This document shows positions 6,749-28,434 of a stretch of 64,000 nucleotides of DNA, one piece after another. The stretch comes from Syntrophales bacterium (GTDB lineage Bacteria; Desulfobacterota; Syntrophia; Syntrophales; UBA6807), in NCBI GenBank assembly GCA_040767195.1, contig JAXGPA010000001.1:928419-992418 (forward strand), given 5' to 3'. Numbering within the stretch: position 1 is the stretch's first letter; each line of letters opens with the position of its first letter. The position numbers and the translations under genes were made by a program. Under the pieces are notes generated by a model, which ran no database searches, was not told the origin of the DNA, and saw nothing but the letters and a program-made list of their open reading frames with translations.

Positions 6749-6751
6749 CGC

Positions 6752-12878: not shown

Positions 12879-13002
12879 CGTTATTCCTTCCCTTATATTT
12901 TATATTCTTTAAGTAGTATTTATAGGGCTTGGTAATCTGTGGATAGCCTGTTTTTTTCTTTTAATAACGGTTTCTTGTTCTCTTTGGCGTCTGTGGATGA
13001 AA
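12879..13002. other. Candidate oriC sub-region in the dnaA-dnaN spacer: AT-rich DUE candidate plus two DnaA boxes
   Basis: A 33-nt AT-rich tract spans 12893-12925 and includes the tandem 7-mers TTATATT-TTATATT (12893-12906). TGTGGATAG at 12938-12946 and TGTGGATGA at 12992-13000 each differ by one mismatch from the TTATCCACA reverse complement. Confidence 0.55.
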
Positions 13003-14358
13003 TCAGGGGCGCCCCTTGAGGATTTCCTGGATGTCAGCGATAATTTTTTCCGTTTTCGGGTCGTTTTGTGACAGCTTCTGAATTTTGCGAAAAGCGTAGA
13101 TGACCGTGGAGTGATCCTTACCCCCGATACGGTTCCCGATGTCCGGAAAGGAAGCATCGGTAAGGGTTCTGGACAGGTACATGGCGATCTGTCTCGGGAC
13201 GGCCAGGTTCTTGCTTTTCTTTCGGGACTTGATATCGGGAATCTTAAGGCCGAAATAGTCGGCGGTGGCCTTGACGATCTCCTCGATGTCGTATGGCCGC
13301 CTTTCTTCCTGCTTGATCAGTTTTCTGAGGACGGAGTGGGCAAGTTCCATGTCGATTTCTTTGCCTGTCAGGGATGAGTAAGCCATGAGTCCCGTGAGAA
13401 AACCCTCCAGTTCCCGTATATTGGAGTCCGGAGCATGGGTCGCGATGTATCGGGAGACATTCTCCGGAAGGTGGAGATTGTTTTCCTGTGCCTTTTTTTC
13501 GATGATGGCGATCCGGGTTTCGATTTCGGGAGGCTGTATATCCGCAATGAGGCCCCATTCAAAGCGGGACCGCAGTCTTTCCTCGAGGTTCTGAATGTCC
13601 TTGGGAAAGCGGTCGCTGGTTACGACAATCTGCTTTCCCGAGTCATGGAGGGAGTTGAAGGTGTGGAAAAATTCCTCCTGGGTTCTTTCCTTGCCGGCAA
13701 TGAACTGGATGTCGTCTATGAGGAGGGAGTCTATTTTCCTGTACTTATCTCGAAATTTCGTCATGCGGTCGTAGCGGATTGAGTAAATCAGCTCGTTCAT
13801 GAATTCTTCCGCCGACAGGTACAGAACGGTTTTTTCGGGGTAGAGGTTCAGTGTCTGAAGACCAACAGCATTGAGAAGGTGTGTCTTTCCAAGCCCTACG
13901 CCGCCGTAAATAAAAAGGGGGTTGTATATCCTGGCCGGTTGCTTGGCTACGGCGACCGACGCCGCATGGGCGAACTGGTTGCAGGAACCGACAACGAACC
14001 GGTCGAAACTGTAATTGATGTTGAGACGGGGAGACAGTTTTTGACCGGAGGCGAACGACGGTACCCTGTCGTCTTTTTCCGTTTTTCGGGTTCGTTTAAT
14101 TTCTCCCTGAGACTCTTGGGAGGCCCCAACGACAAGGCGGATTTCCACCTCCGTCCCCAGGGCCGTCGACAGGGCTTCCCGGATACTCTGCAGGTAGTTT
14201 TCCTCGATCCAATCCCTGAAAAAACGATTTGGAACGGACAGTTCAATCGCCTTTCCACTCATTCCGAGAATCCGGATGGGCTGGATCCAGGTTTCAAAAA
14301 GCTGGATATTTATTTTGCCCCGCAGGGATTCCAGTGCTTTTTTCCAGGCCGATTCCAT
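13003..14358 (-). CDS. dnaA: Chromosomal replication initiator DnaA
   Basis: 451 aa. AAA+ Walker A GGVGLGKTHLL, box VII/sensor motifs, and the C-terminal DNA-binding helix region (DHSTVIYA). Confidence 0.97.
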   Translation of the reverse strand: MESAWKKALESLRGKINIQLFETWIQPIRILGMSGKAIELSVPNRFFRDWIEENYLQSIREALSTALGTEVEIRLVVGASQESQGEIKRTRKTEKDDRVPSFASGQKLSPRLNINYSFDRFVVGSCNQFAHAASVAVAKQPARIYNPLFIYGGVGLGKTHLLNAVGLQTLNLYPEKTVLYLSAEEFMNELIYSIRYDRMTKFRDKYRKIDSLLIDDIQFIAGKERTQEEFFHTFNSLHDSGKQIVVTSDRFPKDIQNLEERLRSRFEWGLIADIQPPEIETRIAIIEKKAQENNLHLPENVSRYIATHAPDSNIRELEGFLTGLMAYSSLTGKEIDMELAHSVLRKLIKQEERRPYDIEEIVKATADYFGLKIPDIKSRKKSKNLAVPRQIAMYLSRTLTDASFPDIGNRIGGKDHSTVIYAFRKIQKLSQNDPKTEKIIADIQEILKGRP

Positions 14359-14361
14359 GTT

Positions 14362-14393
14362 TTATTCACAGTTTTATCCACAACTGTGGATCA
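14362..14393. promoter_or_regulatory. Cluster of three DnaA boxes in the 47-bp parB-dnaA spacer
   Basis: TTATTCACA at 14362-14370 has one mismatch. TTATCCACA at 14374-14382 is perfect. TGTGGATCA at 14385-14393 is inverted with one mismatch. The last two form an inverted pair. Confidence 0.7.
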
Positions 14394-14405
14394 AATGGCA
14401 TTGTT

Positions 14406-15263
14406 TTATTTTCCTTCCAGCATTTCATCAAGAAGACGCCGGAGGTCGTCATCATTGTGAAAGCGTATCTCGATCCGTCCCCCTTTGCGTTTTCCCGGCT
14501 TTATGCGGACGCGGGTCATGAGCTTTCTGGAGAGCGTCGTTTCCATATCGCTGATGTAGGGGTGAACCACGTTCTTTTTTTCGGGTGATTTTTTCTCTTT
14601 CTCAAATTTGCGGACCAGGGCTTCCGTCTGGCGTACGTTCAGGTTTTTGGAGAGAATTTCACGAAAAGCACGTGTCTGCTCCTTTTCCGAGGGAAGCACG
14701 AGAAGGGCCCGCCCGTGGCCGGCGGAGATCTCTTTTTTGACGAGGCCGTCCCGAATTGGGGCGGGGAGCTTGAGAAGCCTCAGGAAATTGGAGACGGTGG
14801 ACCGATCTTTGCCGACCCGGGCGGCGATTTCTTCATGGGAAAGGTGGAACGTGTCGTGAAGGGTCCGATACCCCTGCGCTTCTTCTACCGGGTTCAGATC
14901 TTCTCTCTGAAGATTTTCTATCAGGGTGATCTCCGCCGTCTGTCGGTCATCCACGTCCCGGATTACCACGGGGACCGTTTTCAGACCCGCCGCCTGGGCG
15001 GCCCGCCACCGACGCTCACCGGCGATGATTTCGTAGCCCCGATTCTGCCGTCTCACCAGAATGGGCTGGAGAACGCCGGAATCCCGAATCGACGAAGCCA
15101 GGCGGGCCTGCTCCTCCGCGTCGTAGTGCCTCCTGGGCTGAAAGCGGTTGGGCTTCAGGTCCTCAATGGCACACAAGTGAAACTGGCCGCCCTTTTCCGT
15201 GTGATCCAGAAGGTCGGAAAAAATCGCCCCCAGACCGCGTCCAAGGGATTCCTTCTTCGCCAT
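14406..15263 (-). CDS. parB: Chromosome partitioning protein ParB
   Basis: 285 aa. ParB box GERRWRAA, an HTH region, and a position directly downstream of parA. Confidence 0.94.
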   Translation of the reverse strand: MAKKESLGRGLGAIFSDLLDHTEKGGQFHLCAIEDLKPNRFQPRRHYDAEEQARLASSIRDSGVLQPILVRRQNRGYEIIAGERRWRAAQAAGLKTVPVVIRDVDDRQTAEITLIENLQREDLNPVEEAQGYRTLHDTFHLSHEEIAARVGKDRSTVSNFLRLLKLPAPIRDGLVKKEISAGHGRALLVLPSEKEQTRAFREILSKNLNVRQTEALVRKFEKEKKSPEKKNVVHPYISDMETTLSRKLMTRVRIKPGKRKGGRIEIRFHNDDDLRRLLDEMLEGK

Positions 15264-16037
15264 CTAAGCCCTCCCGTTGTTCAAGATTTCCCTGGCCAGT
15301 TCGAAATATGCCACGGCGCCGCGGGACGTGAGATCGTAAAGCAAAACAGGCAACCCATGGCTCGGGCTTTCGGAAAGACGGACATTACGAGGGATTACCG
15401 TCTGAAAAACCTGTTTCCCGAAATATTTTCGAACTTCCTCTTCCACCCGATGGGAAAGGCGGTTTCTCGTATCGAACATGGTCAGAAGGATCCCGCCGAT
15501 GGCCAGCTCCGGATTCAGGCGGCCCTGGACCAGTCGAACGGTGTTCATCAGCTGACTCAGCCCCTCCATGGCGAAGTACTCGCACTGGAGCGGGATGATG
15601 AGGAAATCGGAGGCCACGAGTGCGTTGATCGTGAGAAAGCCGAGGGACGGCGGGCAGTCGATGATAATGAAATCATATTCCTCCGAAAGCTGGGACAGGA
15701 GGCCCTTCATCCTGCGTTCCCGATCGGGCAGGCGGACGAATTCTACCTCTACGCCGATAAGGTCCTGGTTCGCGGGAACCACGGAAAGGGCCGGCAGGGG
15801 GGAGGGATGAAGGGTATCCGAGAGTGGAATTTTACCGATCAGGGCCTGATAAAGGTTCTTTTTCTGTACCTGGGAGCGGTCGATGCCCACGCCGCTGGAC
15901 GTGTTGCCTTGCGGATCGCTGTCGATAAGGAGCGTCTTTTTTTCCGCGGCGGCGAGAGACGCGGCAAGATTGATCGCCGTGGTGGTTTTACCCACACCGC
16001 CCTTCTGGTTGGCAATCGCAAATATTTTTTTTCTCAT
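15264..16037 (-). CDS. parA: Chromosome partitioning ATPase ParA/Soj
   Basis: Deviant Walker A NQKGGVGKTT. ATG 16037 gives the usual MRKKIFAIANQKGG N-terminus. The track's longest version begins at GTG 16073. Confidence 0.93.
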   Translation of the reverse strand: MRKKIFAIANQKGGVGKTTTAINLAASLAAAEKKTLLIDSDPQGNTSSGVGIDRSQVQKKNLYQALIGKIPLSDTLHPSPLPALSVVPANQDLIGVEVEFVRLPDRERRMKGLLSQLSEEYDFIIIDCPPSLGFLTINALVASDFLIIPLQCEYFAMEGLSQLMNTVRLVQGRLNPELAIGGILLTMFDTRNRLSHRVEEEVRKYFGKQVFQTVIPRNVRLSESPSHGLPVLLYDLTSRGAVAYFELAREILNNGRA

Positions 16038-16117
16038 ATTTTTCAGGATGTTGATCGTGACAGCCGGGATCACGAAAGGTAAGCGAAGATTAGCATAAAA
16101 TATCTTTTTTTAGAAGA

Positions 16118-16873
16118 TCAAAGTTCAAGGTCCGGCTTCTCCCCTCCAGCCCCCCGGAAAACGAGAAGATGCCGTTCTTCCTGGGAAAAGGGAAGAGAAA
16201 GGGTGACCTGTCTCACCAGGGCAAGGTTTTTTTCGAAAACGGTTTTTTCGGCGTTTTCGATTTCTTCCCGGACCGATCGGCCCTTCATGGCGATAATGGC
16301 GCCCGTCTCCTTGACAAAGGAACTGGAACGCTCGAGGAAGCGGGCCAGGGGAAAGACCGCCCTGGAAACAACGACGTCAAAGGCGTTCCTGTGGATGCCC
16401 CGGGAAATCCAGTCTTCGATCCGGGCCTGCTCCGCCACGATTCCGTCAAGGCTGAAATGACGGATCATTTCCTTGAGAAAGGACTGTTTTTTTCGGGAGG
16501 AGTCTACGAGAACGACGTAAGCGTCAGGTCTGACCATTTTCAGGGGAATTCCCGGGAGACCCGCCCCGGTCCCCATGTCGAGCAGGGCAAACGGCTTCCG
16601 GGGCAGAAGGGGGAGGACGGTCAGGGAATCGAGAAAATGGCGGACGGCGAGATCCCCTATCGTGTCCGCCGAGACAAGATTGACCGATCGGTTCCAGAAG
16701 AGTATTTCCTGCCCGTAGCCACGGAGCATCTCCACGGTCTTTTTTTCCATGGTCAGACCTAGCGACGAGGCTCCCTCCATGAGGAGCGCCTCGAAGGAAC
16801 GTTTCAAATCTTGACTTTCCGGCATGATCCCATTATGCACTTTTCTTACGCCGTCGTGAGCGTTTTCGTTCAT
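16118..16873 (-). CDS. rsmG: 16S rRNA (guanine527-N7)-methyltransferase RsmG/GidB
   Basis: SAM-binding DMGTGAGLPGIPL and conserved context upstream of parAB. The start is uncertain (alternative ATG at 16825). Confidence 0.88.
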   Translation of the reverse strand: MNENAHDGVRKVHNGIMPESQDLKRSFEALLMEGASSLGLTMEKKTVEMLRGYGQEILFWNRSVNLVSADTIGDLAVRHFLDSLTVLPLLPRKPFALLDMGTGAGLPGIPLKMVRPDAYVVLVDSSRKKQSFLKEMIRHFSLDGIVAEQARIEDWISRGIHRNAFDVVVSRAVFPLARFLERSSSFVKETGAIIAMKGRSVREEIENAEKTVFEKNLALVRQVTLSLPFSQEERHLLVFRGAGGEKPDLEL

Positions 16874-16917
16874 TATCAGAATAACGTTTTTTACAGACCC
16901 CCAGCGGGTTTATTACC

Positions 16918-17667
16918 ATGGTGAAGAATTCAAGGGCAAGGCTCGAAAACATCAGCATCGTTCTGAACAGGCCGAAGTACGGTGGGAATATCGGTTCCGC
17001 CGCCCGGTGCGCCATGAACATGGGCATCGAAAAACTCATCGTGGTGGGCCATCCGGAGCCCGACAGCGAAGCCATGAAACAGATGGCCACCCATGTGGCG
17101 GCTCCCGTGGTGGACGGAATCCGCTATTTCGACGCCCTTTCGGAAGCCCTCGGGGCGTTTCGCTATGTTGTGGGAACGACGGCCCGGAGGGGACACTCGA
17201 CCCTCCGGAGCGTCATGGTGGAGCCCCGGGAGATGGGGAGGACGGTGGCGGAACTCTCCATGAACAACGAAATCGCCCTTCTCTTCGGTCCCGAGGACCG
17301 GGGCCTGACGAACGAGGAGCTTCGGCACTGCCATCTCCTGGTTTCCATTCCCGCCTCCGATCGTTTTCGCTCCCTCAACCTCTCCCATGCCGTCATGATC
17401 CTCTGCTACGAGATCTTCAGCGCCTCATTGCCCCGATTGGCGTCCTTCACCCCCCGGCTCGCCACGTCGGGCGAACTGGAAGACATGTACGCCCACCTGA
17501 AAGACACCCTCCTGGCGATCGATTTCATCCGGGAAGACAACCCGGAATACGGGATGATCGCCCTCCGCCGGTTTCTCTCCCGGGTCCGTCTTTATTCCAA
17601 GGATGTCAAGATCATCCGGGGCATCTGCCGGCAGCTCGGGTGGTTCGCCGGGAAACAAAAGTCTTGA
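16918..17667 (+). CDS. SpoU/TrmH-family RNA 2'-O-methyltransferase (TrmJ-like)
   Basis: 249 aa. SPOUT motifs (NIGSAARCAMNMG, LLFGPEDRGL, IPASDRFRSLNLSHAV). Confidence 0.85.
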   Translation: MVKNSRARLENISIVLNRPKYGGNIGSAARCAMNMGIEKLIVVGHPEPDSEAMKQMATHVAAPVVDGIRYFDALSEALGAFRYVVGTTARRGHSTLRSVMVEPREMGRTVAELSMNNEIALLFGPEDRGLTNEELRHCHLLVSIPASDRFRSLNLSHAVMILCYEIFSASLPRLASFTPRLATSGELEDMYAHLKDTLLAIDFIREDNPEYGMIALRRFLSRVRLYSKDVKIIRGICRQLGWFAGKQKS

Positions 17668-17692
17668 CATTCCCCCGGTGCGGCCATAATAA
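17664..17692 (+). promoter_or_regulatory. Sigma70-type promoter candidate for glnA
   Basis: TTGACA (17664-17669), a 17-nt spacer, then TAATAA (17687-17692), about 50 nt upstream of the glnA ATG. Confidence 0.5.
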
Positions 17693-17742
17693 AGACAGTT
17701 TAAATAACAGGGTTTTTCCCTGATGACCGTTCAGGAGGTTTC

Positions 17743-19071
17743 ATGGACAAAGTCACCGCAGAGCAGGTATTGCGGACAGTCAAGGAAAAAAATATCCATT
17801 TCATCCAGTTCTGGTTTACCGATGTCCTGGGCATGCTGAAGAGCTTTTCCGTGTCGCCGTCGGAACTGGAAACGGCCCTCCAGGAAGGCATGGGGTTCGA
17901 CGGATCCTCCATCGAGGGGTTTGCCAGGATCGAGGAAAGCGACATGATCGCCATGCCCGACCCCGCCACTTTCACCGTCATTCCCTGGCTGGATCAGAAC
18001 GGGTCGGTCGCCCGGGTCTTCTGCGACATCGTCAATCCCGACCTGACCCCCTATGACGGGGACCCCCGGTACGCCCTCAAGAAAATGATCAAGCGGGCCG
18101 CGGACAAGGGATACACATTTTTCGTCGGTCCCGAGCTGGAGTATTTTTATTTCACGGGCAACCAGTCTCCGGAGATCCTGGACCGGGGCGGCTACTTCGA
18201 CATGTCTCCTTCCGACCTGGGCGGGGACATCCGCCGGGCCACGGTGAAAACGCTGCAGCAGATGGGAATCACCGTGGAATACAGCCACCACGAGGTAGCC
18301 CAGAGCCAGCATGAAATCGACCTCCGGTACGGTGACGCCCTCAAGATGGCCGACACGGTCATGACCTCCCGCATCACCGTCAAGGAAATAGCCGGTAAAT
18401 TTGGCATGTACGCCACCTTCATGCCGAAACCCATTCTGGGACAGAACGGGAGCGGCATGCACGTCCACCAGTCCCTTTTCCGGGGGGAAAACAACGCCAT
18501 GTACGATCCCTCCGATGCCTTTCATCTTTCCGACATGGCGAAGCACTACATCGCCGGCCTCCTCAAGCACGCCCGGGAAATCACCGCCGTGACGAGCCAG
18601 TGGGTCAATTCCTACAAGAGGCTCGTCCCGGGTTACGAGGCGCCGGTCTACATTTCTTGGGCCCGGCGGAACCGGTCCACCCTGGTCCGGGTACCCATGT
18701 ACAAGCCGGGTAAGGAAAAGGCCACGAGAATCGAGTACCGGAGCCCGGACCCGTCGTGCAATCCCTACCTGACCTTCGCGGTCATGCTTGCCGCCGGCCT
18801 GGAGGGGATCGAGAAAAAATATCCCCTGCCGGCGCCGGTGGAAGAGGACATTTACACCATGCCGCCGGAAAAGCGGAAAAAGAAAAAGATTTACGACCTG
18901 CCTGGTAGCCTTGTCGAGGCCGTCCAGGAAGTGGAAAAAAGCCGGGTTGTCCGGGACGCCCTGGGAGAGCATATATTCAAGAAATTCATCGAGAACAAGC
19001 GGGTGGAATGGGATCTTTACCGGATGCACGTCTCCCGGTTTGAAATCGACAAATACCTTCCGATCCTGTGA
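17743..19071 (+). CDS. glnA: Glutamine synthetase type I
   Basis: 442 aa. GS beta-grasp N-domain and catalytic-domain motifs (FDGSSIEGF, KPILGQNGSGMHVHQSL, NPYL). Confidence 0.95.
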   Translation: MDKVTAEQVLRTVKEKNIHFIQFWFTDVLGMLKSFSVSPSELETALQEGMGFDGSSIEGFARIEESDMIAMPDPATFTVIPWLDQNGSVARVFCDIVNPDLTPYDGDPRYALKKMIKRAADKGYTFFVGPELEYFYFTGNQSPEILDRGGYFDMSPSDLGGDIRRATVKTLQQMGITVEYSHHEVAQSQHEIDLRYGDALKMADTVMTSRITVKEIAGKFGMYATFMPKPILGQNGSGMHVHQSLFRGENNAMYDPSDAFHLSDMAKHYIAGLLKHAREITAVTSQWVNSYKRLVPGYEAPVYISWARRNRSTLVRVPMYKPGKEKATRIEYRSPDPSCNPYLTFAVMLAAGLEGIEKKYPLPAPVEEDIYTMPPEKRKKKKIYDLPGSLVEAVQEVEKSRVVRDALGEHIFKKFIENKRVEWDLYRMHVSRFEIDKYLPIL

Positions 19072-19102
19072 CATTGCCTGCTCAGGCGGGAAAGGAACCC
19101 AT

Positions 19103-20260
19103 ATGGAAACCCTGTTTACCTATACAGGCGCGAAAAAGATTGTTTTCGGGAGGGGGGCACTGGACCGCCTCCCCGAATTCACGGCCGAACTGAACGGAAA
19201 AAAACCGCTTGTCGTCATGGACGGTTCCCTGGCCCGGTCGGGATTGTCGCGGCGGGTGTCCCTTCTTCTGGAGGGGGCGGGCGCCGCGCCGGTTCTTTAT
19301 GATGCCATCGAGGGAGAGCCGGAACTGGAAAAGGCCGATGAAGGGGCCCGGATCGCCTTGGAGAACCGGTGCGATGTCGTGGTGGGAATCGGCGGCGGCA
19401 GCGCCATGGACGCGGCGAAGGCCATGGCGGCGGTGGCGGGAAATGGTGCCCGGGCGGTGGATTTTCTCGGGTTGAACCGTATCCCGGGGCCCGGTCTTCC
19501 GACGGTCATGATTCCCACGACAGCGGGAACGGGCAGCGAGGTGACCTTCACCGCTGTCTTCATCCGGAAAGACCTGAAGAAAAAGGAAGGCATGAACAGC
19601 CCCTATCTCTATCCCCAGGTCGCCCTTCTCGATCCCCTGCTCACGCTGGGCCTTCCGTCCATGCCCACGGCGACGACAGGCATGGACGCCCTGTGTCATG
19701 CCATCGAGTCCTACACGTCGGTGAACGCCAGTCCCATGAGTGCCCTCGTGTCCCTGGAAGCCATCCGGCTCATCGGCGCGAACCTTCGGACGGCCGTTCA
19801 CGACGGTGGCAACCTGGCCGCCCGGGAGGCCATGCTCCTGGGAAGCCTGTACGCCGGCCTCGGGCTGGCCAACGCCGGCGTGACCGCCGTCCACTCCCTC
19901 TCCTATCCCCTGGGTGGCCGCTTCGGCGTCCCGCACGGCTTGGCCAACACGGTGCTCCTGCCCGCGGTCATGGAATACAACATCCCCGGGGCCCTGGAAA
20001 AGTTCACCCGGGTTGCCGAAGCCCTGGGTGAAGAGACAAGCGGTCTGCCCCTGCGGGAGGCCGCCTGGCTCGCCGTGGAGGCCGTCTCGGGGCTCATCCG
20101 CGACTGTGCCGTTCCCATGGGGCTGGAAGGGTTGGGGGTCAAGGAAGAAGACTTCCCCTCGCTGGCGGAAGTCGCCATGACGGTGGCGCGACCCCTGGCG
20201 AACAATCCTTGTAAAGTGACAGCCAGGGATGCCGTCAACATTTACCGCCAGGCCTTTTGA
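19103..20260 (+). CDS. Iron-containing (class III) alcohol dehydrogenase family protein; KdnB-like by context
   Basis: METLFTYTGAKKIVFGRGAL..., GGGSAMDAAK, and metal-binding His-rich segments (HAIESY, HSLSYPLG). The internal ATG 19103 has an upstream GGAAAGGA. The track ORF 18788 overlaps the glnA 3' end. Confidence 0.85.
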   Translation: METLFTYTGAKKIVFGRGALDRLPEFTAELNGKKPLVVMDGSLARSGLSRRVSLLLEGAGAAPVLYDAIEGEPELEKADEGARIALENRCDVVVGIGGGSAMDAAKAMAAVAGNGARAVDFLGLNRIPGPGLPTVMIPTTAGTGSEVTFTAVFIRKDLKKKEGMNSPYLYPQVALLDPLLTLGLPSMPTATTGMDALCHAIESYTSVNASPMSALVSLEAIRLIGANLRTAVHDGGNLAAREAMLLGSLYAGLGLANAGVTAVHSLSYPLGGRFGVPHGLANTVLLPAVMEYNIPGALEKFTRVAEALGEETSGLPLREAAWLAVEAVSGLIRDCAVPMGLEGLGVKEEDFPSLAEVAMTVARPLANNPCKVTARDAVNIYRQAF

Positions 20261-20314
20261 GAGGATGATGACGAAGGCCTGAAAAGAAAGAAATGGGAAA
20301 GGGAAGGAAAGACC

Positions 20315-21517
20315 ATGCCGGGTTTTGAACTGATCGGTCAGGAAGAGAAGAAGGAAGTTCTCGACATTCTCGAAACGGGCATCTGGATGCGCTACGGGTT
20401 CGACCAGGAAAGGAGGGGGGTCTTCAAGGTCAGGGAACTCGAGGAGGCTTTTTGCCGGTACCACGGCGTCTCTCACGCCCTGGGCGTCACCTCGGGCTCG
20501 GCGGCCCTGAAGGTGGCTCTCGAGGCCCTCGATGTGGGCCCGGGGGACGAGGTCATCGTTCCGGCCTTCACGTTCGTGGCCACCTACGAGGCCGTTCTCG
20601 AAGTCGGGGCCATCCCCGTCATGGCCGATGTCGATGACTCGCTCAACCTGAGTTCCGAAGACATCCCGGCGAAAATAACGGACCGGACGAAGGCGGTCAT
20701 TCCCGTCCACATGTGCGGGGCCGGCGCCCGGATCGACGGAATCCTGGAAGCGGCCCGAAACCACGGGCTTCTCGTTCTTGAAGACAACGCCCAGAGTCTC
20801 GGCGGGGCCTTCCGGGGCCGGAAGCTCGGTACCTTCGGGGACATGGCCACCTTCAGCTTCGATTTCTACAAGACGATCACCACCGGGGAGGGTGGCATGG
20901 TTCTCACGAATCGGAGAGACCTCTATGAACGGGCGGACGGTTATCACGACCACGGCCACGACCACAACCCGGCGGTGAGCCGTGCCCTGGAAGGACGTTC
21001 CATCCTGGGGTTCAACTACCGGATGAACGAGTTCCAGGGGGCCGTGGGTCTCGCCCAGTTCCGGAAACTCGACACCATTGTCTCCCGTCAGCGGGAGAAC
21101 AAGGCGTTTCTCAAGGAGCGGCTGGGCGGGGTTTCCGGCGTCACCTTCCGGCACCTTCCCGATCCCGAAGGTGACACGGCCACGTTTCTGGGCTTACATC
21201 TTCCCGACGGCCCGTCGGCGAAAGCCTTCCAGGCAGCCCTGAGGGAGGAAGGGATCGACTCGATCTATTACAAGGAAAATTTGTGGCATTACGCCCCGAA
21301 CTGGGAGCACCTCATCGCCTGGTCAACGGCGAACTCGAAGAAGTTCCCCTTTATCAACACCCTGAACCCGAGGAAGGCGACCTATGATCGGGAGGCCATT
21401 CCCCACGCCGAGGCGCTTCTGGCGCGCACCCTTTTCATGGCCGTTCCCGTGATCCTGCCGGACGAGCGAAAGGACGCCCTGGCCCGGGGAATCGAGAAGG
21501 CGGCAAAAAAAGGATAG
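20315..21517 (+). CDS. DegT/DnrJ/EryC1/StrS-family PLP-dependent sugar aminotransferase; KdnA-like by context
   Basis: 400 aa. SGSAALKVAL, DEVIVPAFTFVAT, and the PLP-lysine motif FSFDFYKTITTGEGG. Confidence 0.85.
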   Translation: MPGFELIGQEEKKEVLDILETGIWMRYGFDQERRGVFKVRELEEAFCRYHGVSHALGVTSGSAALKVALEALDVGPGDEVIVPAFTFVATYEAVLEVGAIPVMADVDDSLNLSSEDIPAKITDRTKAVIPVHMCGAGARIDGILEAARNHGLLVLEDNAQSLGGAFRGRKLGTFGDMATFSFDFYKTITTGEGGMVLTNRRDLYERADGYHDHGHDHNPAVSRALEGRSILGFNYRMNEFQGAVGLAQFRKLDTIVSRQRENKAFLKERLGGVSGVTFRHLPDPEGDTATFLGLHLPDGPSAKAFQAALREEGIDSIYYKENLWHYAPNWEHLIAWSTANSKKFPFINTLNPRKATYDREAIPHAEALLARTLFMAVPVILPDERKDALARGIEKAAKKG

Positions 21518-21527
21518 GAGTCCGGTC

Positions 21528-22502
21528 ATGTTCATTGTCACCGGAGGGGCGGGGTTCATCGGAAGCGCCGTCGTCTGGCAGCTCAACCGCCAGGGGATCG
21601 ACGACATCCTGGTGGTGGACCGGCTCGGCGAAACGGAGAAGTGGCGGAACCTGGTACCGCTCCGGTACCGGGATTATCTGCGCAAGGACCGGTTCCTCGC
21701 CCAGGTCGTGGAAGACCGCGTTCCTTTTGCCGTGGACGGGGTGATTCACATGGGGGCCTGTTCCGACACCACGGAACGGGACGGGGACTACCTCATGGAG
21801 AACAACTTCCATTACAGCTGCCGGGTGGCCGAGTGGGCCGTGGCCAAGGGGATCCCCATGATCTACGCCAGCAGCGCCGCCACTTACGGCGACGGTTCCC
21901 TGGGGTTTTCCGACGACGACGCCCTCTCTCCCCGTCTCAGGCCGCTCAATTTCTACGGCTATTCGAAGCAGCTCTTCGACCTGTGGGTCCTCCGGAAAGG
22001 GTGGGAGAAGAAGCTGGCCGGACTTCGGTTCTTCAATGTCTTCGGACCCAACGAGTACCACAAGGGGGACATGAGAAGCGTGGTCCTCAAGTCCTTCGAG
22101 CAGATCCAGGACGGGGGCCGTGTCCGCCTTTTCCGGTCCTACCGCTCCCCCTACGGTGACGGGGACCAGATGCGGGACTTCGTGTACGTCAAGGACGCCG
22201 TCGATGTGATCTGGTGGCTCGTGGAGCACCCGGAGGTCCGGGGAATCTTCAACGTGGGGACGGGACAGGCCCGGACCTGGAACGATCTCGTCAGGGCCGT
22301 CTTCAAAGCCGCCGGAAAAGAGCCGGCAGTCGATTACGTGGAAATGCCCGAATCCCTCCGGGGCCAGTACCAGTATTTCACGGAAGCCCCCATGGAAAAG
22401 CTCGCCCGGGCGGGATACCCTCTTGCCTTCCGGTCCCTGGAGGAAGCCGTCGCCGATTACGTGACCGGTTACCTCATGACGGAAAACCCCCGCCTCAAAT
22501 GA
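21528..22502 (+). CDS. hldD: ADP-L-glycero-D-manno-heptose 6-epimerase
   Basis: 324 aa SDR. MFIVTGGAGFIGS, YGYSK catalytic motif, and HldD/RfaD-like length and pattern. Confidence 0.88.
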   Translation: MFIVTGGAGFIGSAVVWQLNRQGIDDILVVDRLGETEKWRNLVPLRYRDYLRKDRFLAQVVEDRVPFAVDGVIHMGACSDTTERDGDYLMENNFHYSCRVAEWAVAKGIPMIYASSAATYGDGSLGFSDDDALSPRLRPLNFYGYSKQLFDLWVLRKGWEKKLAGLRFFNVFGPNEYHKGDMRSVVLKSFEQIQDGGRVRLFRSYRSPYGDGDQMRDFVYVKDAVDVIWWLVEHPEVRGIFNVGTGQARTWNDLVRAVFKAAGKEPAVDYVEMPESLRGQYQYFTEAPMEKLARAGYPLAFRSLEEAVADYVTGYLMTENPRLK

Positions 22503-22518
22503 CAACGGGGAGGTTTCA

Positions 22519-23268
22519 GTGAAAACCGTCTGTCTCATTCCGTGCCGGTATCATTCCACCCGTTTCGAGGGCAAGCCCCTGGCGGAGATTCTCGGGAAAC
22601 CCATGGTCCGGCACGTCTATGAAAGGGTTCTCCGGGCCCGGGGCGTTTCTTTCGCCGCCGTGGTCACCGACGACGAACGGATTGTCCGGGCCGTCCGGTC
22701 TTTCGGCGGAGAAGTGATCCTCACGGGAGGGCACCACCGGTCGGGCACGGACCGGCTGGCGGAAGCGGCGGAAATCCTCGCACTGGATGAGGGGGACATC
22801 GTGGTGAACGTTCAGGGGGATCAGCCGACGGTCCATCCCCGGCAGGTGGAAGAGGTCGTCGCGCCCCTCGCGGCGGATCCGGCCCTTCCTTTTTCGACGC
22901 TCATCTATCCCATTCACGAGGACGAGGAAATTTTTCACCCCAACGTGGTAAAGGTCGTCTTCGACGGCAGGGGAAACGCCCTCTATTTTTCCCGGGCCCC
23001 CATTCCCTTCGTCCGAGACCGGAGGCGGAAGGGGCGGTATTTCAAGCACCACGGTATCTATGCCTACCGGAAAGCCTTCCTGGAGACGTTTTCGAAACTG
23101 CCCGAGAGTCCCCTGGAAAGCTTCGAATCCCTGGAACAGCTCCGGGCCCTGGAGAACGGGTACCCCCTTCGGGTCGTCGAATCCGCCTTCGACTCCATCG
23201 AGGTGGACACGGCGGAGGACCTGAAGACCGTGGAAGCCTTTTTGATGAAGGAAGGAGACGGTCCATGA
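22519..23268 (+). CDS. kdsB: 3-deoxy-manno-octulosonate cytidylyltransferase (CMP-Kdo synthetase)
   Basis: 249 aa. IPCRYHSTRFEGKPL, VNVQGDQP, EQLRALENG. GTG start after GGGGAGG. Confidence 0.9.
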   Translation: MKTVCLIPCRYHSTRFEGKPLAEILGKPMVRHVYERVLRARGVSFAAVVTDDERIVRAVRSFGGEVILTGGHHRSGTDRLAEAAEILALDEGDIVVNVQGDQPTVHPRQVEEVVAPLAADPALPFSTLIYPIHEDEEIFHPNVVKVVFDGRGNALYFSRAPIPFVRDRRRKGRYFKHHGIYAYRKAFLETFSKLPESPLESFESLEQLRALENGYPLRVVESAFDSIEVDTAEDLKTVEAFLMKEGDGP

Positions 23269-24026
23269 CATTTCCCATCATCGATTCCCACATTCACTGC
23301 GGCGTCCAGAACGTGGACCAGCCCTTCGAAATGATCCGGTCCTACCTCGTCCGGGGGGGCATCGACGGGGCCTGCCTCTACGCCCCGGTGGAAGATATTT
23401 ACAACCGTTACGATTTTCATTTTCAGGACACGCCCCACTGGGTGGCCTGCCGGCAGCGGGCGAATGAATACGTCCTTCGCCTCCAGGAAACGGAAACGAA
23501 CGTATACGCCTATTACTTCGTGTGGAACGACTTCCGGAAGGAGGAACTGGCGAAGGGGTATCGCGGGATCAAGTGGCACCGCCACTCCTATGAGCCGGAG
23601 TATCACTACGAGGACGAGAAATGCGAGGCCTTTCTCCAGGAAGTGTACCGTCTCGGCCTTCCCGTCGTGCTCGAGGAATCCTTTGAGAACACCCTCTATT
23701 TCATCGAACGGGTGGGCGGCCGGACCCCCGTGATCATCCCCCACATGGGGGGGCTGAACGGCGGGTTTACCAATCTCTTTCACAGCGGTATCTGGGACAA
23801 CGAGACGATTTTCGCCGACACGGCCCTGGCGGGGCGGGGGGAGATTGCCCGGTTCATCGAAAAATACGGTGTTGACCGGCTTCTGTTCGGAAGCGACTTT
23901 CCCTTCGGAATTCCCGGGGAGGAGCTGGCCAAGCTTCGGGGGCTGGGACTGACGACGGAAGGGTTTGAAAAGGTGGTATCGGCGAACATCCGCGAACTCG
24001 TCGGCGACAGGGGGGGAAAGTCATGA
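23265..24026 (+). CDS. Amidohydrolase-family (TIM-barrel metal-dependent) hydrolase
   Basis: 253 aa. The N-terminal IDSHIH metal-binding motif is typical of amidohydrolase_2. ATGA overlap with the kdsB stop. Confidence 0.72.
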   Translation: MTFPIIDSHIHCGVQNVDQPFEMIRSYLVRGGIDGACLYAPVEDIYNRYDFHFQDTPHWVACRQRANEYVLRLQETETNVYAYYFVWNDFRKEELAKGYRGIKWHRHSYEPEYHYEDEKCEAFLQEVYRLGLPVVLEESFENTLYFIERVGGRTPVIIPHMGGLNGGFTNLFHSGIWDNETIFADTALAGRGEIARFIEKYGVDRLLFGSDFPFGIPGEELAKLRGLGLTTEGFEKVVSANIRELVGDRGGKS

Positions 24027-24667
24027 AAATCGCCGAAGGCCTTCATGGGTTTTTGTGGCAGAGCTCCATGGAGAACAACTGCAACACCTACCTCGTCCAG
24101 GGGAAAAAAACCGTTCTCGTCGATCCCGGCCACAGGCATCTCTTCAGCCATGTGGAGCAGGGTCTCCGGAGGCTGGGTCTTACCGTCGAGGCAGTGGACC
24201 TTGTCGTGGTCACCCACGCCCACCCGGATCACCTGGAGGGGGTGTCGAAGTTTCCGAAAACCACGCTTTTCGCCATGAGCGAGGAGGACTGCCGGTTTCT
24301 TCAGTCCATGGCTTCAGGCCGCTACGCCCTTCCGGAACCTGACTTTTTCCTCCGGGAGGGAGATTTTGCCGTCGGGGACCTTTCCTTCCGGGTTTTTCTG
24401 ACCCCCGGTCATTCCCCCGGATCGATCAGTCTTTATCTGGAGAACCTGAAGGCCCTGTTCACAGGCGACGTGGTCTTTTCCCAGGGAATCGGGAGGACCG
24501 ATCTTCCCGGCGGCGCCGGGCGTGTTCTCCGGGACAGCATCGAAACGCTCAGGCGGCTTCCCATCGACTACCTTCTCCCCGGTCACGGAAACCCCCTCCA
24601 GGGCCGAGAGGCCGTTGAGAAGAATTTCCAGGTCATCGAGGAATACTGGTATCCCTATCTCCGCTGA
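24023..24667 (+). CDS. MBL-fold metallo-hydrolase
   Basis: 214 aa. THAHPDH metal motif and later LTPGHSPG. ATGA overlap with the upstream gene. Confidence 0.85.
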   Translation: MKIAEGLHGFLWQSSMENNCNTYLVQGKKTVLVDPGHRHLFSHVEQGLRRLGLTVEAVDLVVVTHAHPDHLEGVSKFPKTTLFAMSEEDCRFLQSMASGRYALPEPDFFLREGDFAVGDLSFRVFLTPGHSPGSISLYLENLKALFTGDVVFSQGIGRTDLPGGAGRVLRDSIETLRRLPIDYLLPGHGNPLQGREAVEKNFQVIEEYWYPYLR

Positions 24668-24683: not shown

Positions 24684-25250
24684 TCACCCTTCAAGGCCCT
24701 TCCGAAAAGCGTTGCGTTCCTCTTCGACAAAAGACCGCAAAGCCTCATGAGATTCGACGTTCGGTGAAACGGCCGGACCGGTGATCTTCCGGGCGGCCAG
24801 GTCCGCCAGGACAGCCGCCGAAAGGGCCGCCTTCTTCTCTTCCACCCGTTCCCGATAGGCGGTGAGAGCCTTTTTCAGCCCCTCCGTGTTTTCTCCGCAC
24901 AGGGACTCGAGGAGACCGAGGATCCGCTCGTTGTCTGCGCCGGGATCGATTCTCTCCATGAGTTCCTTTTTCAGAAGAAGAGACGGCGTGACGCCGGGTG
25001 GAGGCGGAGAGGAAGAAAGTTCGGCCAGGAGGGCATCGGAAGACATGGCGCCGTCGAGGACCCGCTGGAGATGTCCCCGTATCTTTCGGGACCACTCCTT
25101 CTCCCGGTGGGCCTTTTTTTCCGCCTCCGTGGGGAGAAGGTCCCGGGTCTTTTCCATGATGAGATCGAGGGTGCTTTTGATTTCCGCCATGTCTTCCCGT
25201 CTCCAAAGGGTATTCCGGGTGATCCTGTCACGGGACGCAGAATCTGTCAA
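24684..25250 (-). CDS. Hypothetical protein (predicted alpha-helical, soluble)
   Basis: ORF only; I recognised no family. A more likely start is ATG 25190 (MAEIKSTLDLIMEKT), which is preceded by GGAGA. Confidence 0.45.
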   Translation of the reverse strand: MTDSASRDRITRNTLWRREDMAEIKSTLDLIMEKTRDLLPTEAEKKAHREKEWSRKIRGHLQRVLDGAMSSDALLAELSSSPPPPGVTPSLLLKKELMERIDPGADNERILGLLESLCGENTEGLKKALTAYRERVEEKKAALSAAVLADLAARKITGPAVSPNVESHEALRSFVEEERNAFRKGLEG

Positions 25251-25448
25251 GACGGGCGGCCTCTTGTCAGGAGCCCCGGGTTACGCGGCCGTTCTCTTCA
25301 CCATCCCGTCCGGCGCCTCCCGGGAAGCATTTCCCCACGGAGGATCTTTTTCGAAAATTCTCGGCAGGGGCTCTTGAGCGGCTTTTACGGGCCTCTCCGG
25401 GCGGGACAGGGAGGAGATGGGTGGCCGTCGGGCGGGAATTCGTACCGC

Positions 25449-26123
25449 TTACTTCAGGGGGGCCGTGAGGAGGTCTATCTGCCGCCTCACCTGTCGTGCC
25501 TTTTCCGGGTTCCCCCTTTCCCCGTAATAGGATTCCAGGGTTTCCAGGTAGACCAGGACGATCCGTTTCCAGCCCTCCCGGGAAGCCGCCTGAAAGGCTT
25601 GCTGCAGGGTGGCTTCATTCCATGTGCCGACTTTCAGGGCGACGGCGGAGGCGATGATCCGGGACAGGGGGTCGTTCATGGCCCCGATGGTTTCATTTAT
25701 TCTTTCAACCCGTTTTTCCCGGAGAGCCTTCAGGAACTCCCGATAAACCCCGGGAAGGCGGGACGGGTCCGATTCGTCCAGGTTCCCCTGGAGAAATGAC
25801 AGGTAGATTTCGTTTTCTTCCGTGTGAGATCGATTCGGCAGGAGGCAGTCCTCCCCGGAAACTTCTTGCAGGGAGGCCCTTCGAAGGGCGCAGCGGGTCA
25901 GAAGGACCCGGTCCAGAAGATCCAGGTCGCCGCTTTTCCTGAATTCGTCGATGGCCCTCTGGAAGTGAAAATCGGCTTTCCCGTCTTCTCCTTCCAGGTA
26001 ATATTTCTTGTAGGATTCAAGAGCGTTGAACCCCTCAAGCTTCCAGTCCGGCACGGGCGGGGAGCCGCAGCCCGCGGCGAGAAACAGAAGCGCCAGGAGG
26101 CTTATAAGACCCGTCCGATTCAT
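25449..26123 (-). CDS. Lipoprotein, predicted alpha-helical, translationally coupled to the MlaD-like gene
   Basis: Signal peptide with lipobox LLFLAAG-C (MNRTGLISLLALLFLAAGCGS). ATGA overlap with the stop of the upstream MCE gene. Confidence 0.65.
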   Translation of the reverse strand: MNRTGLISLLALLFLAAGCGSPPVPDWKLEGFNALESYKKYYLEGEDGKADFHFQRAIDEFRKSGDLDLLDRVLLTRCALRRASLQEVSGEDCLLPNRSHTEENEIYLSFLQGNLDESDPSRLPGVYREFLKALREKRVERINETIGAMNDPLSRIIASAVALKVGTWNEATLQQAFQAASREGWKRIVLVYLETLESYYGERGNPEKARQVRRQIDLLTAPLK

Positions 26124-27031
26124 GGGAGCCGGACCTCCTTTTCCTCCTTCAACGGGATGAGCCTTTCCACCCCCCGGAGGACCTCGTTCACCGAGTCCAC
26201 GGCGCGATCGATGTCCCTGCGAAGGACCTCCAGGTTATCCGTCGAACGGGTCATCTCCCCGGTCATCCGGGGGAGGTCCTCGATCACGGCGTTCAGGGTT
26301 TTCAGCTTGTCCAGGATGTCCCGGAGAATGGACGACACGAGGGGAAGGATGCCTCCATCGGAGAAGAGGCCGTCTTTCGCTTCCCTGGTCATCCCGTCCA
26401 CCTCTTTCGTTATCTTCGAGATGTTAAGCAGGATGTCCTCGGTGGAGGAGGCGAGAGCCGTCAGTTTCAGAAGGGTGTCGTTCACCGCCGTCACGGTGGC
26501 CTTTTCCCCGACCGCCATTTCGAGGAGGGTTTCCCTTTCGGCCAGGGTGGATGTTATCTTGACGATGTTGTCCGCTACCGTACCCACTTTTTCGATGAGG
26601 GGCTGGACACGCTGAACGGCGTCGTTGATGCTGTCCACGGGAAAGACTTCGAGCATGCTTTCCGTGGAGAGGACAGGGCTTTCCAGGTTGCTGGTGTAAA
26701 CGACGATTTTTGGTGTGCCGATGAGGGGCCGGTCGAGGATGAGAATGCTGTCCCCGTGGAGCCACTTGACGTGGCGCTCGGGGATCTTGACGGTGATGAT
26801 GACGACGCCCTTTTCGTTCAACTCCAGGTCATAGACCTTGCCGATTTCGAAACCCGAAAAGACGACGGGCATGCCCTGGCTGAATCCCTCGCCCGACTTG
26901 GCGAAAAGTGTGAAGGTGTATACTTTTGAAAAATAATCTTTTTTCCAGGCGACGTATCCGATGAAAAGCACGATCAGGAGGACGGTGGTGACGACAAAGA
27001 AGCCAACTTTCAGTTCAATGTTCTTCGCCAT
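26120..27031 (-). CDS. MlaD/MCE-domain protein (outer-membrane lipid asymmetry / lipid transport substrate-binding subunit)
   Basis: MAKNIELKVGFFVVTTVLLIVLF TM anchor followed by an MCE fold (GMPVVFSGFEIGKVYDLEL) and a long helical C-terminus. ATG 27031; the track's longer start is 27097. Confidence 0.85.
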   Translation of the reverse strand: MAKNIELKVGFFVVTTVLLIVLFIGYVAWKKDYFSKVYTFTLFAKSGEGFSQGMPVVFSGFEIGKVYDLELNEKGVVIITVKIPERHVKWLHGDSILILDRPLIGTPKIVVYTSNLESPVLSTESMLEVFPVDSINDAVQRVQPLIEKVGTVADNIVKITSTLAERETLLEMAVGEKATVTAVNDTLLKLTALASSTEDILLNISKITKEVDGMTREAKDGLFSDGGILPLVSSILRDILDKLKTLNAVIEDLPRMTGEMTRSTDNLEVLRRDIDRAVDSVNEVLRGVERLIPLKEEKEVRLP

Positions 27032-27479
27032 GGCCCGCCCCGTATCGGTGTTTGTTCCATCGATAATCGAAAATATAACATGCCCTGTAGAAATCAAGCG
27101 TTTTTTTCAAAAGCCCGTCGAAAAAGGTGAAGTCGTGGACTGTCGGGACGAGTTCGAAGGGGCGGTCGATGAGAAGTTCGGCCTCCCTGAATCTCGTGGC
27201 CCGAAGAAGCATGGCGGCGAAACGCTCCTCTTCCAGGAGATCGGGATTGCGCAGGCCGCCGATCCGGCCCATGCCGAGGCGGTTCAGGGCCTCCGAGGCA
27301 TCCCCCATGGCTTCCGCCGCCGGCAGGGATTCATGGTACTGGCGGATCAGGGCGATGTTCTGCCGGACGTCGAGGTTCGAAATCAGCGGGTAGTCCAGCG
27401 AGATGATCCCCCCGTTGGGATGACGGGCCAGGAAGTCATCCCGATCCCGTTCGAGGATGTCCTGCTTGTCGAAGAAAAT
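27015..27479 (-). pseudogene. Vestigial ABC ATPase (MlaF-like) fragment with no Walker A, a degenerate signature and a degenerate Walker B
   Basis: The frame is colinear with the MlaF core from after the Q-loop. PLISNLDVRQNIAL corresponds to ALFTDMNVFDNVAY. LLEEERFAAMLLRA replaces LSGGMARRAALARA. ELLIDRPF replaces DLIMFDEPF. No ATG/GTG/TTG start exists between the mlaE stop (27479) and ATG 27308. The only upstream ATG (27647) lies out of frame inside mlaE. Confidence 0.45.
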
Positions 27480-28267
27480 CAGATGACGGACCGCGCTATT
27501 AATGAGATCACCTCGATGAATATGATGGCCAGGAAAACCCGGATCATGCCGTGAAGCACGGCGATGGGAATGCTCGTCAGCTGATAGGAGGCCCGCATCC
27601 CCGATATGACGGGAATGAGGGTGATAAAAAAGCCGAAGGTGGCGCATTTGAACAGAAGGATCAGTATGTCCGACAGATGAATGGAATTCACCAGGAGATG
27701 GGAGTAGATATTGAGGCCCATGCCGAAAATGATCCGGGAGAAAAGACCCCCGCTGATCACGAGGACGGTGGAAAAAAGACCGGTGAGAAGAATGAGAGAA
27801 ATCACACCGTTCATTATTCTCGGGAGAAACAGGTAATTGATCGGGTCGATTCGAAAGGCCCGGAGGGTGTCCAGTTCACGATTCACCTTCATGACGGCGA
27901 TTTCCGCGTTGATGGCGGACCCGGACCGAAGGGCGATGAGAAGAACGGTGACGAAGGGAGACAGTTCGTTGACGGCGAAGCCGATGAGGATATTCCCCAG
28001 GTACTGGGTCAGCCCGAAAGTCTTCAGCGTCTGGAGGACGATGCCCATGATGAGGGATCCCAGGATAATGGAAACGGTAATGAAAAGAGGGAGGATCTCA
28101 ACGGAGGTAAAGTAAATCTGGCTGAGAAGGACGGAACGGGTGGCACTGTTGTAAGCCCTGGGGTGAAAAACATTCCACAGGATCCGTCGGGAGAACGCGA
28201 TGGTCTCGCCGACGGATCGCGAAAACTGAAGGGTCGTCTTACCGATCCGGGTGATCGTTGCGATCAT
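27479..28267 (-). CDS. MlaE-family ABC transporter permease
   Basis: Polytopic membrane protein. MIATITRIGKTTLQF..., and ALRSGSAINAEIAVMKVNRELDTLR is the MlaE/YrbE signature region. The track's longest start is 28333. Confidence 0.85.
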   Translation of the reverse strand: MIATITRIGKTTLQFSRSVGETIAFSRRILWNVFHPRAYNSATRSVLLSQIYFTSVEILPLFITVSIILGSLIMGIVLQTLKTFGLTQYLGNILIGFAVNELSPFVTVLLIALRSGSAINAEIAVMKVNRELDTLRAFRIDPINYLFLPRIMNGVISLILLTGLFSTVLVISGGLFSRIIFGMGLNIYSHLLVNSIHLSDILILLFKCATFGFFITLIPVISGMRASYQLTSIPIAVLHGMIRVFLAIIFIEVISLIARSVI

Positions 28268-28434
28268 GGAGGCCTCTGGGCGATTAAGGGTTCGGCACCC
28301 ACCGGGCCTTTCGATCCCTGGCCGGCAGTGCAACGGTGCCGTTCTCTCTTATTCCTGTGTGCCGGTTTTTCTTCTTGATGTATTTTAAATATGGCATAAA
28401 AAAACGATCCCTTCAACAGGCCGCTTGCGCCGCT

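Follow-up and report, generated by a model that had tools for sequence, protein, structure and literature searches.

The window analysed here, a 64,000-nt stretch of DNA to which all coordinates refer, comes from an uncultured anaerobe of the order Syntrophales. Between positions 19103 and 23268, it carries a block of four genes, all on the + strand and arranged head-to-tail: an iron-containing alcohol dehydrogenase (Fe-ADH), a DegT-family aminotransferase, hldD and kdsB (Table 1). These four open reading frames, their coordinates and the gaps of 54, 10 and 16 nt that separate them had been described in a first-pass annotation of the sequence, and all were confirmed. The ATGs at 19103 and 20315 are preceded by purine-rich ribosome-binding sites, which are of the GGAA type and not the canonical GGAGG. 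A longer ORF (18788-20260) was rejected as the Fe-ADH gene, since the nearest homologues listed are almost all 385 aa long, a length that fits a start at the ATG at 19103.

Table 1. Genes of the cluster and of its immediate surroundings, with the profile or structure matches on which the assignments are based
Feature	Position	Strand	Evidence and remarks
glnA, type I glutamine synthetase	17743..19071	+	TIGR00653 535 bits
Group III Fe-ADH, kdnA-linked ('F-type') clade, predicted NAD(P)+-dependent Kdo 8-dehydrogenase	19103..20260	+	PF00465 162 bits, PF25137 190 bits
KdnA-family PLP aminotransferase, predicted 8-oxo-Kdo -> 8-amino-Kdo	20315..21517	+	PF01041 291 bits (fold-type I DegT/DnrJ/EryC1); 5k8b match
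hldD, ADP-L-glycero-D-manno-heptose 6-epimerase (inner-core heptose)	21528..22502	+	TIGR02197 408.8 bits (cut-off 274.6)
kdsB, CMP-Kdo synthetase	22519..23268	+	GTG start; NF003952 303.5 bits (cut-off 193); TIGR00466 234.6 bits (cut-off 155.2)
Amidohydrolase_2-family protein, possible operon tail	23265..24026	+	PF04909 35.7 bits; overlaps kdsB stop (ATGA)
Metallo-beta-lactamase-fold hydrolase	24023..24667	+	PF00753 103 bits; overlaps stop of the Amidohydrolase_2 gene

The aminotransferase belongs to the family of KdnA, the 8-amino-3,8-dideoxy-manno-octulosonate transaminase (EC 2.6.1.109, PDB 5k8b). It aligned with S. oneidensis KdnA over residues 1-387 with 357 bits (E 1.2e-105, 43% identity), against 190 bits for the next solved structure, and among 1.8 billion library representatives only one protein, P0128, scored higher (427 bits, 50% identical). 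In the reciprocal search, Shewanella KdnA retrieved the window aminotransferase with 339 bits, the next DegT protein of the genome reaching 159 bits. In a quick IQ-TREE phylogeny with SH-aLRT supports, the KdnA family (75 sequences) separated from the nearest DegT subfamily with a support of 100, and the window protein fell in a clade of 15 Syntrophales sequences (support 99) distinct from the Shewanella-type sub-clade. The PLP-lysine motif noted previously, FDFYKTITTGEGG, is present; its lysine, K186, occupies an alignment position that is conserved among DegT relatives, and it aligns with the lysine of 5k8b. Moreover, 63 columns are conserved in both KdnA clades, including Y27 and H217 (in a DHGHDH motif), which are rare elsewhere. 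The reciprocal best hit, the position within the KdnA clade and the link to the only kdsB of the genome all bear out the KdnA assignment.

The nearest DegT subfamily (P0129 and P0130, ∼391 aa) shares 45-50% identity with the window KdnA in the catalytic core, and M1, G3, E5, R33, E92, D183 and H215 are common to both. However, it can be aligned with the window protein only to residue ∼335, and it lacks Y27, H217 and the KdnA-type C-terminus. A Methylomirabilia locus (L130) also belongs to this subfamily and not to KdnA.

The Fe-ADH was rejected as a member of the clade of KdnB, the 3-deoxy-manno-octulosonate 8-oxidase (EC 1.1.3.48, PDB 5k8c, CDD cd08184 FeADH3). It matched 5k8c with 76 bits (E 2.7e-20), which ranks 37 among the solved Fe-ADHs, is 25-28% identical to Shewanella KdnB and lies outside the KdnB clade, which is monophyletic (support 100, stem 2.18). 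A search of the genome with Shewanella KdnB gave no clear counterpart, two paralogues scoring 68 and 63 bits. The KdnB identity considered in the first-pass annotation is thus not borne out: it is the Fe-ADH, and not the aminotransferase, that groups away from its Shewanella equivalent. The best solved relative of the Fe-ADH is 3bfj (253 bits), and DhaT/FucO-type enzymes score ∼250 bits. The FucO/DhaT/methanol dehydrogenase-type proteins (1rrm, 3bfj and 8zrl, 229-253 bits) have the highest overall similarity and share the GGGS motif and the Asp/His3 metal site, but they are not sugar-acid enzymes and have no linkage to kdnA or kdsB. By comparison, 40 of the 60 sequences of the window's Fe-ADH clade are kdnA-linked, and unlinked paralogues form a separate subclade of 12 sequences (support 99). 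The window Fe-ADH belongs to a separate clade that looks mainstream, yet is dedicated to kdnA.

GGGS 97-100 and the metal ligands D195, H199, H264 and H278 of the window Fe-ADH are unchanged in FucO and KdnB. The window enzyme has an aspartate, D40, at the position of FucO D39, where Asp favours NAD+. Four further pocket residues that it has in common with Shewanella KdnB, T150, N165, E72 and D79, are conserved at 90-100% in the linked Fe-ADHs and at 81-100% in true KdnB, and at 0% in the unlinked subclade. T150 corresponds to N151 of FucO, a residue in contact with the C2 hydroxyl of the substrate (PMC10087678); at this position, the window Fe-ADH resembles KdnB and differs from FucO. Other KdnB-conserved residues differ in the window protein, R at 149 and L at 153 being two examples, and its C-terminus is full-length, whereas that of KdnB is shorter.

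The gene order recurs well beyond this genome. Fe-ADH, aminotransferase, optionally hldD, and kdsB follow one another in 14 of the 15 related loci, and the Fe-ADH is directly upstream of kdnA in every close locus with enough flanking sequence (14/14). Across the phylum, 67 of the 106 KdnA-bearing genomes, distributed over many families, have an Fe-ADH of the window type immediately upstream of kdnA and in the same orientation. This recurrence indicates that the Fe-ADH-kdnA-kdsB arrangement is not due to chance. The same type of Fe-ADH also precedes kdnA in a Synergistaceae and a Ratteibacteria metagenome-assembled genome.

In Shewanella oneidensis, the pathway to 8-amino-Kdo (Kdo8N) involves KdnB, KdnA and the KdsB of the cluster, according to Gattis et al. 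(2013) as related in PMC4402001 and PMC5125639. The window likewise encodes a three-gene module of an Fe-ADH-family oxidoreductase, a KdnA-family aminotransferase and KdsB, its KdsB being 48% identical to that of the Shewanella cluster. The two clusters differ in that the Fe-ADH is upstream of kdnA in the window, whereas kdnB is downstream of kdnA in Shewanella, in the insertion of hldD, and in the host, here an anaerobe of another phylum. As for the earlier statement that Kdo8N is confined to Shewanella, it holds for the literature covered, where the sugar is reported from this genus only (PMC4402001); the genes, however, are widespread, kdnA-type genes being found in 107 of 401 sampled genomes of the phylum, in Bacteroidota and in others. 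Authentic kdnA-kdnB(-kdsB) clusters occur outside Shewanella in Paraferrimonas, Corallincola, several Bacteroidota, Desulfobacterales and six genomes of the window's phylum. Their predicted pathway and KdnA family are those of the window, but their KdnB and KdnA are 51-61% and 53-61% identical to the Shewanella proteins, respectively, and neither type is present in the window.

Taken from the sequence, the most probable reading, to which we give roughly a 60% chance, is that 19103-23268 is an LPS inner-core operon for a Kdo8N-type pathway (oxidation of C8, transamination, activation) with an alternative dehydrogenase. Of the original Kdo8N proposal, the pathway logic and the KdnA assignment stand, and the equation of the dehydrogenase with KdnB does not. 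In such a pathway, the Fe-ADH would oxidize C8, the sole primary alcohol of free Kdo, to the aldehyde with NAD(P)+. The aminotransferase, judging from its family, would then use PLP and an amino acid donor, probably glutamate, to turn the aldehyde into the amine. KdsB, the sole CMP-Kdo synthetase of this 98.8%-complete genome, would activate the product (Kdo8N and/or Kdo), and WaaA would transfer the activated sugar onto lipid A, while HldD would provide the core heptose. The genes kdsA, kdsD and waaA are all present elsewhere in the genome.

More tentatively, and with the odds somewhat against it, the whole kdnA-linked Fe-ADH clade may represent a genuine Kdo 8-dehydrogenase that uses NAD(P)+, possibly the slowly evolving ancestor of the aberrant Shewanella KdnB 'oxidase', and Kdo8N may be common in anaerobes. 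KdnB reportedly contains tightly bound NAD(H) and shows O2-linked turnover on Kdo, in work of Zachman-Brockmeyer and co-workers dated 2016. If this proposal is true, Kdo8N would not be a Shewanella curiosity. It would be a common sugar of the LPS inner core in anaerobic Desulfobacterota, in about a quarter of the genomes sampled, and also in some Synergistota, Bacteroidota and candidate phyla.

The same oxidize-then-transaminate chemistry could instead act on another LPS sugar, for instance on the core heptose at its terminal carbon or on a relative of Kdo such as Ko, with an amino sugar other than Kdo8N as the product. The location of hldD between kdnA and kdsB, in the window and in most Syntrophales loci, is compatible with this idea, as is the separate lineage of the Fe-ADH. 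Moreover, 16 positions conserved in the KdnB-linked KdnA clade differ in the window's clade, which is 41-46% identical to Shewanella KdnA, and it does not follow that the substrate specificity is the same. However, kdsB is the constant partner, whereas hldD is absent from the cluster in five loci (L003, L007, L010, L014 and L015); Y27 and H217 are retained across both KdnA clades, and some pocket residues of the linked Fe-ADHs are shared specifically with true KdnB. The genome also has no real NeuB-type nonulosonate synthase, the lone match (48.6 bits) being an ORF with a better fit to KDO8P/DAHP synthase. We regard another substrate as rather unlikely.

It is less plausible still that the Fe-ADH has a role of its own, LPS-related or other, that its adjacency to kdnA reflects operon history, and that another enzyme makes the aldehyde used by KdnA. 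Several genomes separate the two genes: a complete relative (G210) has kept a 66%-identical Fe-ADH with hldD-kdsB, and no kdnA was found genome-wide above 37% identity; in G017 and G279, kdnA-kdsB is present and a related Fe-ADH lies ∼50 kb and ∼375 kb away, respectively; and kdnA occurs without the partner in genomes of family f23 and in Puia. Against this stand the direct same-strand adjacency across many families of the phylum, the residues shared with KdnB but missing from the subclade of unlinked paralogues, and the identities of Fe-ADH and KdnA to the window proteins, which drop in step across loci. Finally, the view that the Fe-ADH serves energy metabolism as an ordinary alcohol/aldehyde oxidoreductase, and that a Kdo8N pathway reads too much into the presence of a DegT gene among LPS genes, appears very improbable: the best named matches are ErcA, sulfoacetaldehyde reductase, lactaldehyde reductase and 1,3-propanediol oxidoreductase, none of which reaches its family cut-off, and homologues in public sources are named just 'alcohol dehydrogenase', but the conserved operon position, the supported split from unlinked paralogues, the pocket residues in common with KdnB and the strong match of the partner to KdnA argue against it.

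The genes that flank the Kdo8N-type cluster are less conserved. The glnA gene ends 31 nt upstream of the Fe-ADH and is possibly in the same transcription unit. It is adjacent to the cluster only in the nearest relatives (L001), with a downstream location in L015, which indicates that it is not a core part of the cluster. On the other side, the Amidohydrolase_2 gene after kdsB is kept only in three related loci (L001, L002 and L004), and the metallo-beta-lactamase-fold gene is present in L001 and L004 and, farther off, in L002. In a single anaerobic-digester study, four metatranscriptome runs contained 95-97% of the sampled words. RNA contigs extend unbroken from ∼17712 through kdsB and bridge every junction from glnA to kdsB, a pattern compatible with a single transcript but no proof of one; most of them end at 23290-23430.

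In the open literature consulted, 8-amino-Kdo (Kdo8N) is treated as exclusive to Shewanella, where strains that lose it become more sensitive to bile salts and polymyxin (PMC4402001). The Syntrophales genome studied here (2.39 Mb, 98.8% complete) would probably encode a Kdo8N-type pathway as well, with a different Fe-ADH lineage in the role of KdnB, a sequence-based reading to which we give a probability of about 0.6. The first-pass annotation had proposed such a pathway from an Fe-ADH and a DegT aminotransferase next to hldD and kdsB, by analogy with the S. oneidensis oxidoreductase KdnB and aminotransferase KdnA. For Shewanella, reconstitution of the pathway in a heterologous host is reported. 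The aminotransferase indeed belongs to the KdnA family, whereas the Fe-ADH falls outside the KdnB clade, yet is linked to kdnA. The four genes were found where they had been placed, all on the forward strand, and the gaps of 54, 10 and 16 nt between them agree. Purine-rich ribosome-binding sites precede the starts of the Fe-ADH and aminotransferase genes.

Genes of the operon and its immediate flanks (positions in the window)
Feature	Position	Strand	Remarks
glnA	17743-19071	+	31 nt upstream of Fe-ADH
Fe-ADH	19103-20260	+	385 aa; family scans agree with name
DegT aminotransferase	20315-21517	+	400 aa; family scans agree with name
hldD	21528-22502	+	above curated cut-off
kdsB	22519-23268	+	GTG start; above curated cut-off
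Amidohydrolase_2 gene and MBL-fold gene	23265-24667	+	after kdsB, overlapping stop/start codons

Among all solved structures, S. oneidensis KdnA (5k8b) matched the window aminotransferase best, with 357 bits (E 1.2e-105) across residues 1-387; a perosamine synthetase came second with 190 bits. Conversely, Shewanella KdnA used as a query against the source genome retrieved the window aminotransferase first, with 339 bits versus 159 bits for the next protein. When 1.8 billion cluster representatives were searched exhaustively, a single protein (P0128, 427 bits) scored above the level of 5k8b, and the next tier was a subfamily of 391 aa alignable only to about residue 335. For comparison, an authentic Shewanella pair (locus L144) gave 863 bits to 5k8b for KdnA and 775 bits to 5k8c for KdnB; the Shewanella loci were reached by a DNA pattern for MPGFELFGPEE. 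A tree of 80 rows separated the KdnA family from the nearest DegT subfamily outside it (support 100), and placed the window aminotransferase inside a 15-row Syntrophales clade (99), with Shewanella KdnA and the other KdnB-linked KdnA proteins in another clade (99). Both KdnA clades conserve Y27 and H217, two residues that are rare elsewhere. These signature residues were computed on a dereplicated set, as near-identical Shewanella rows had dominated. The reciprocal best match and the position in the tree thus bear out the KdnA-type assignment, and many Syntrophales homologues are already named KdnA by the JGI automatic annotation. On these comparisons family membership is solid, although the clade of the window aminotransferase departs from the Shewanella-type clade at 16 positions that the latter conserves, so that its specificity may differ from that of Shewanella KdnA. 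In a Methylomirabilia locus (L130, 844-3231), a DegT protein is paired with an Fe-ADH that is very divergent in the tree (end-branch length 2.0); this DegT belongs to the nearest outside subfamily and not to KdnA proper.

The assignment of the Fe-ADH as KdnB did not hold. The window Fe-ADH scored 229-253 bits against 1,3-propanediol oxidoreductase, methanol dehydrogenases and FucO, and only 76 bits (rank 37) against true KdnB (5k8c), a member of CDD cd08184 (PMC5125639). The Fe-ADH tree recovers KdnB as a monophyletic clade (support 100) that sits on a very long stem (length 2.18) and excludes the window protein. A Shewanella KdnB query found no clear counterpart in the source genome, reaching two paralogues with 68 and 63 bits. 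In the window Fe-ADH, the GGGS motif and all four metal ligands are retained, and Asp occupies the position of FucO D39, where this residue favours NAD+; for these reasons the protein looks like a conventional NAD-type enzyme. Its homologues in public sources are named only 'alcohol dehydrogenase'. The window encodes another Fe-ADH paralogue on its reverse strand (about 50951-52039), which shares 27% identity with the enzyme of the operon and is placed towards YqhD in the tree.

The Fe-ADH type of the window is dedicated to kdnA. The order Fe-ADH, kdnA, (hldD), kdsB was observed in each of the 14 close loci whose flanks were long enough, and the identities of the Fe-ADH and KdnA to the window proteins drop in parallel across close loci. 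Across the phylum, 107 of the 401 genomes sampled carry a KdnA-family gene (E <= 1e-90); within the taxonomic order of the window, the figure is 12 of 13. When coordinates were compared by eye with an Fe-ADH search, the window type lay directly upstream of kdnA on the same strand in 67 of 106 genomes, the own genome excluded; the pairing was confirmed in the 20 linked genomes that were fetched, mostly with kdsB downstream. The same pairing occurs in one Synergistaceae MAG and one Ratteibacteria MAG. The clade of the window Fe-ADH (hereafter F-type) holds 60 rows, 40 of them kdnA-linked; 12 rows that are unlinked paralogues form a subclade of their own (support 99). The pairing is not invariable: one complete Syntrophales genome (G210) has an Fe-ADH-hldD-kdsB cluster (L228 = G210:C8:500000-514000, 6301-9321) that carries the signature residues described below and lacks kdnA, a 55-nt gap being at its place. 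No KdnA orthologue was found in the rest of this genome, where the best DegT is 37% identical. In two other genomes, G017 and G279, kdnA-kdsB and the Fe-ADH are far apart on one chromosome (∼50 kb and ∼375 kb, respectively).

Other arrangements of kdnA were also observed. True kdnA-kdnB(-kdsB) clusters are present instead in six genomes of the window's phylum, a Desulfobacterales MAG, Paraferrimonas, Corallincola and several Bacteroidota. Because true KdnB thus occurs in the Desulfobacterales MAG and in six genomes of a phylum that is itself largely anaerobic, we rejected as a rule the idea that the window Fe-ADH type replaces an O2-dependent KdnB under anoxia. In one family of the phylum and in Puia/Chitinophagaceae, kdnA stands alone amid unrelated genes, as at L219 (6489-7691, with panC and a cell-wall hydrolase gene as neighbours) and at the Puia locus L185 (5616-6911, with a GHL10/MarR gene and rpoN); no partner oxidoreductase was found near either. 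Individual sequences deserve mention: kdnA of G388 is split into two overlapping ORFs (L253, 1789-3161), which suggests a frameshift or an assembly error, and the Fe-ADH of G203 (G203:C84:52191-53015) contains an in-frame TAG. A MAG labelled Polaribacter has a kdnA-kdnB-kdsB cluster (L153, 1038-4318) whose KdnA is 85% identical to that of Shewanella and nests among Shewanella sequences in the tree, through either binning contamination or recent transfer.

Residues E72, D79, T150, N165 and P364 are among the columns conserved in the kdnA-linked Fe-ADHs and absent from the unlinked subclade; at positions 150 and 165 the unlinked paralogues carry Ile and Val, respectively. Of the true KdnB rows, 76-100% share the residue at each of these conserved columns, and FucO, EutG, YqhD and the genome's own paralogues lack these residues, except for a Glu at the E72 column of EutG. 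The P364 column carries little weight, as the alignment there is ambiguous; it is unambiguous at positions 136-170. T150 aligns with FucO N151, which hydrogen-bonds the hydroxyl adjacent to the reacting carbon (PMC10087678), and this correspondence is the strongest sequence argument that both Fe-ADH lineages may use the same kind of substrate. The KdnB-like residues of the F-type clade could reflect either common descent or convergence. KdnB and the F-type clade are grouped apart from FucO and EutG with an SH-aLRT of 94, in a tree that included only three outside references. The mean BLAST score of KdnB is 119 bits against the F-type clade, 95 against EutG and 70 against FucO, and by profile score too the F-type clade is slightly nearer to KdnB than the three references are. 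By phmmer, KdnB scored 76 bits against the window Fe-ADH, no better than against methanol dehydrogenases (77 bits). The case for KdnB as an offshoot of the F-type clade is weak.

If the module does function, digester and sediment anaerobes would commonly bear an amino group on the innermost sugar of their LPS, which would change expectations for their outer-membrane charge and resistance to cationic peptides. A second, conventional-looking dehydrogenase would also be available for the first step, and could help to settle the real turnover of KdnB, an 'oxidase' within an NAD-dependent Fe-ADH family. T150 and N165, together with kdnA linkage, provide a means to recognise partner Fe-ADHs annotated only as alcohol dehydrogenases.

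The genomic context was also considered. The kdsB of the operon is the sole one of the genome, with kdsA, kdsD and waaA located elsewhere. The only match to NeuB in the genome was partial (48.6 bits, on a DAHP/KDO8P-synthase-like ORF); as there is no credible NeuB, Kdo is the sole 3-deoxy-2-ulosonic acid that the genome is predicted to make. In four metatranscriptome runs of one anaerobic-digester study, 95-97% of sampled words were present, and RNA contigs (16863-23055, 17712-23292 and others) span every junction from glnA to kdsB, consistent with a single transcription unit. These contigs mostly terminate at 23.3-23.4 kb; the drop beyond 23.3 kb does no more than hint at a transcript end, and depth per contig cannot rank genes. 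A promoter and terminator scan gave a number of sites not above that of shuffles. glnA adjoins the Fe-ADH only in the nearest relatives (L001) and lies downstream of kdsB at L015; a link to amino-donor supply is speculation. The Amidohydrolase_2 and MBL-fold genes after kdsB are conserved only in L001, L002 and L004. Farther downstream, four forward-strand ORFs of 197-275 aa (25071-28378) have no Pfam match at E <= 1e-5, and some may not be genes, the window being GC-rich. On the other side, dnaN, dnaA, parB, parA and rsmG (gidB) lie in a row on the reverse strand (11787-16873) and cumulative GC skew is lowest at 12-14 kb, so the chromosomal replication origin falls inside the window, at a distance of ∼5 kb from the operon.
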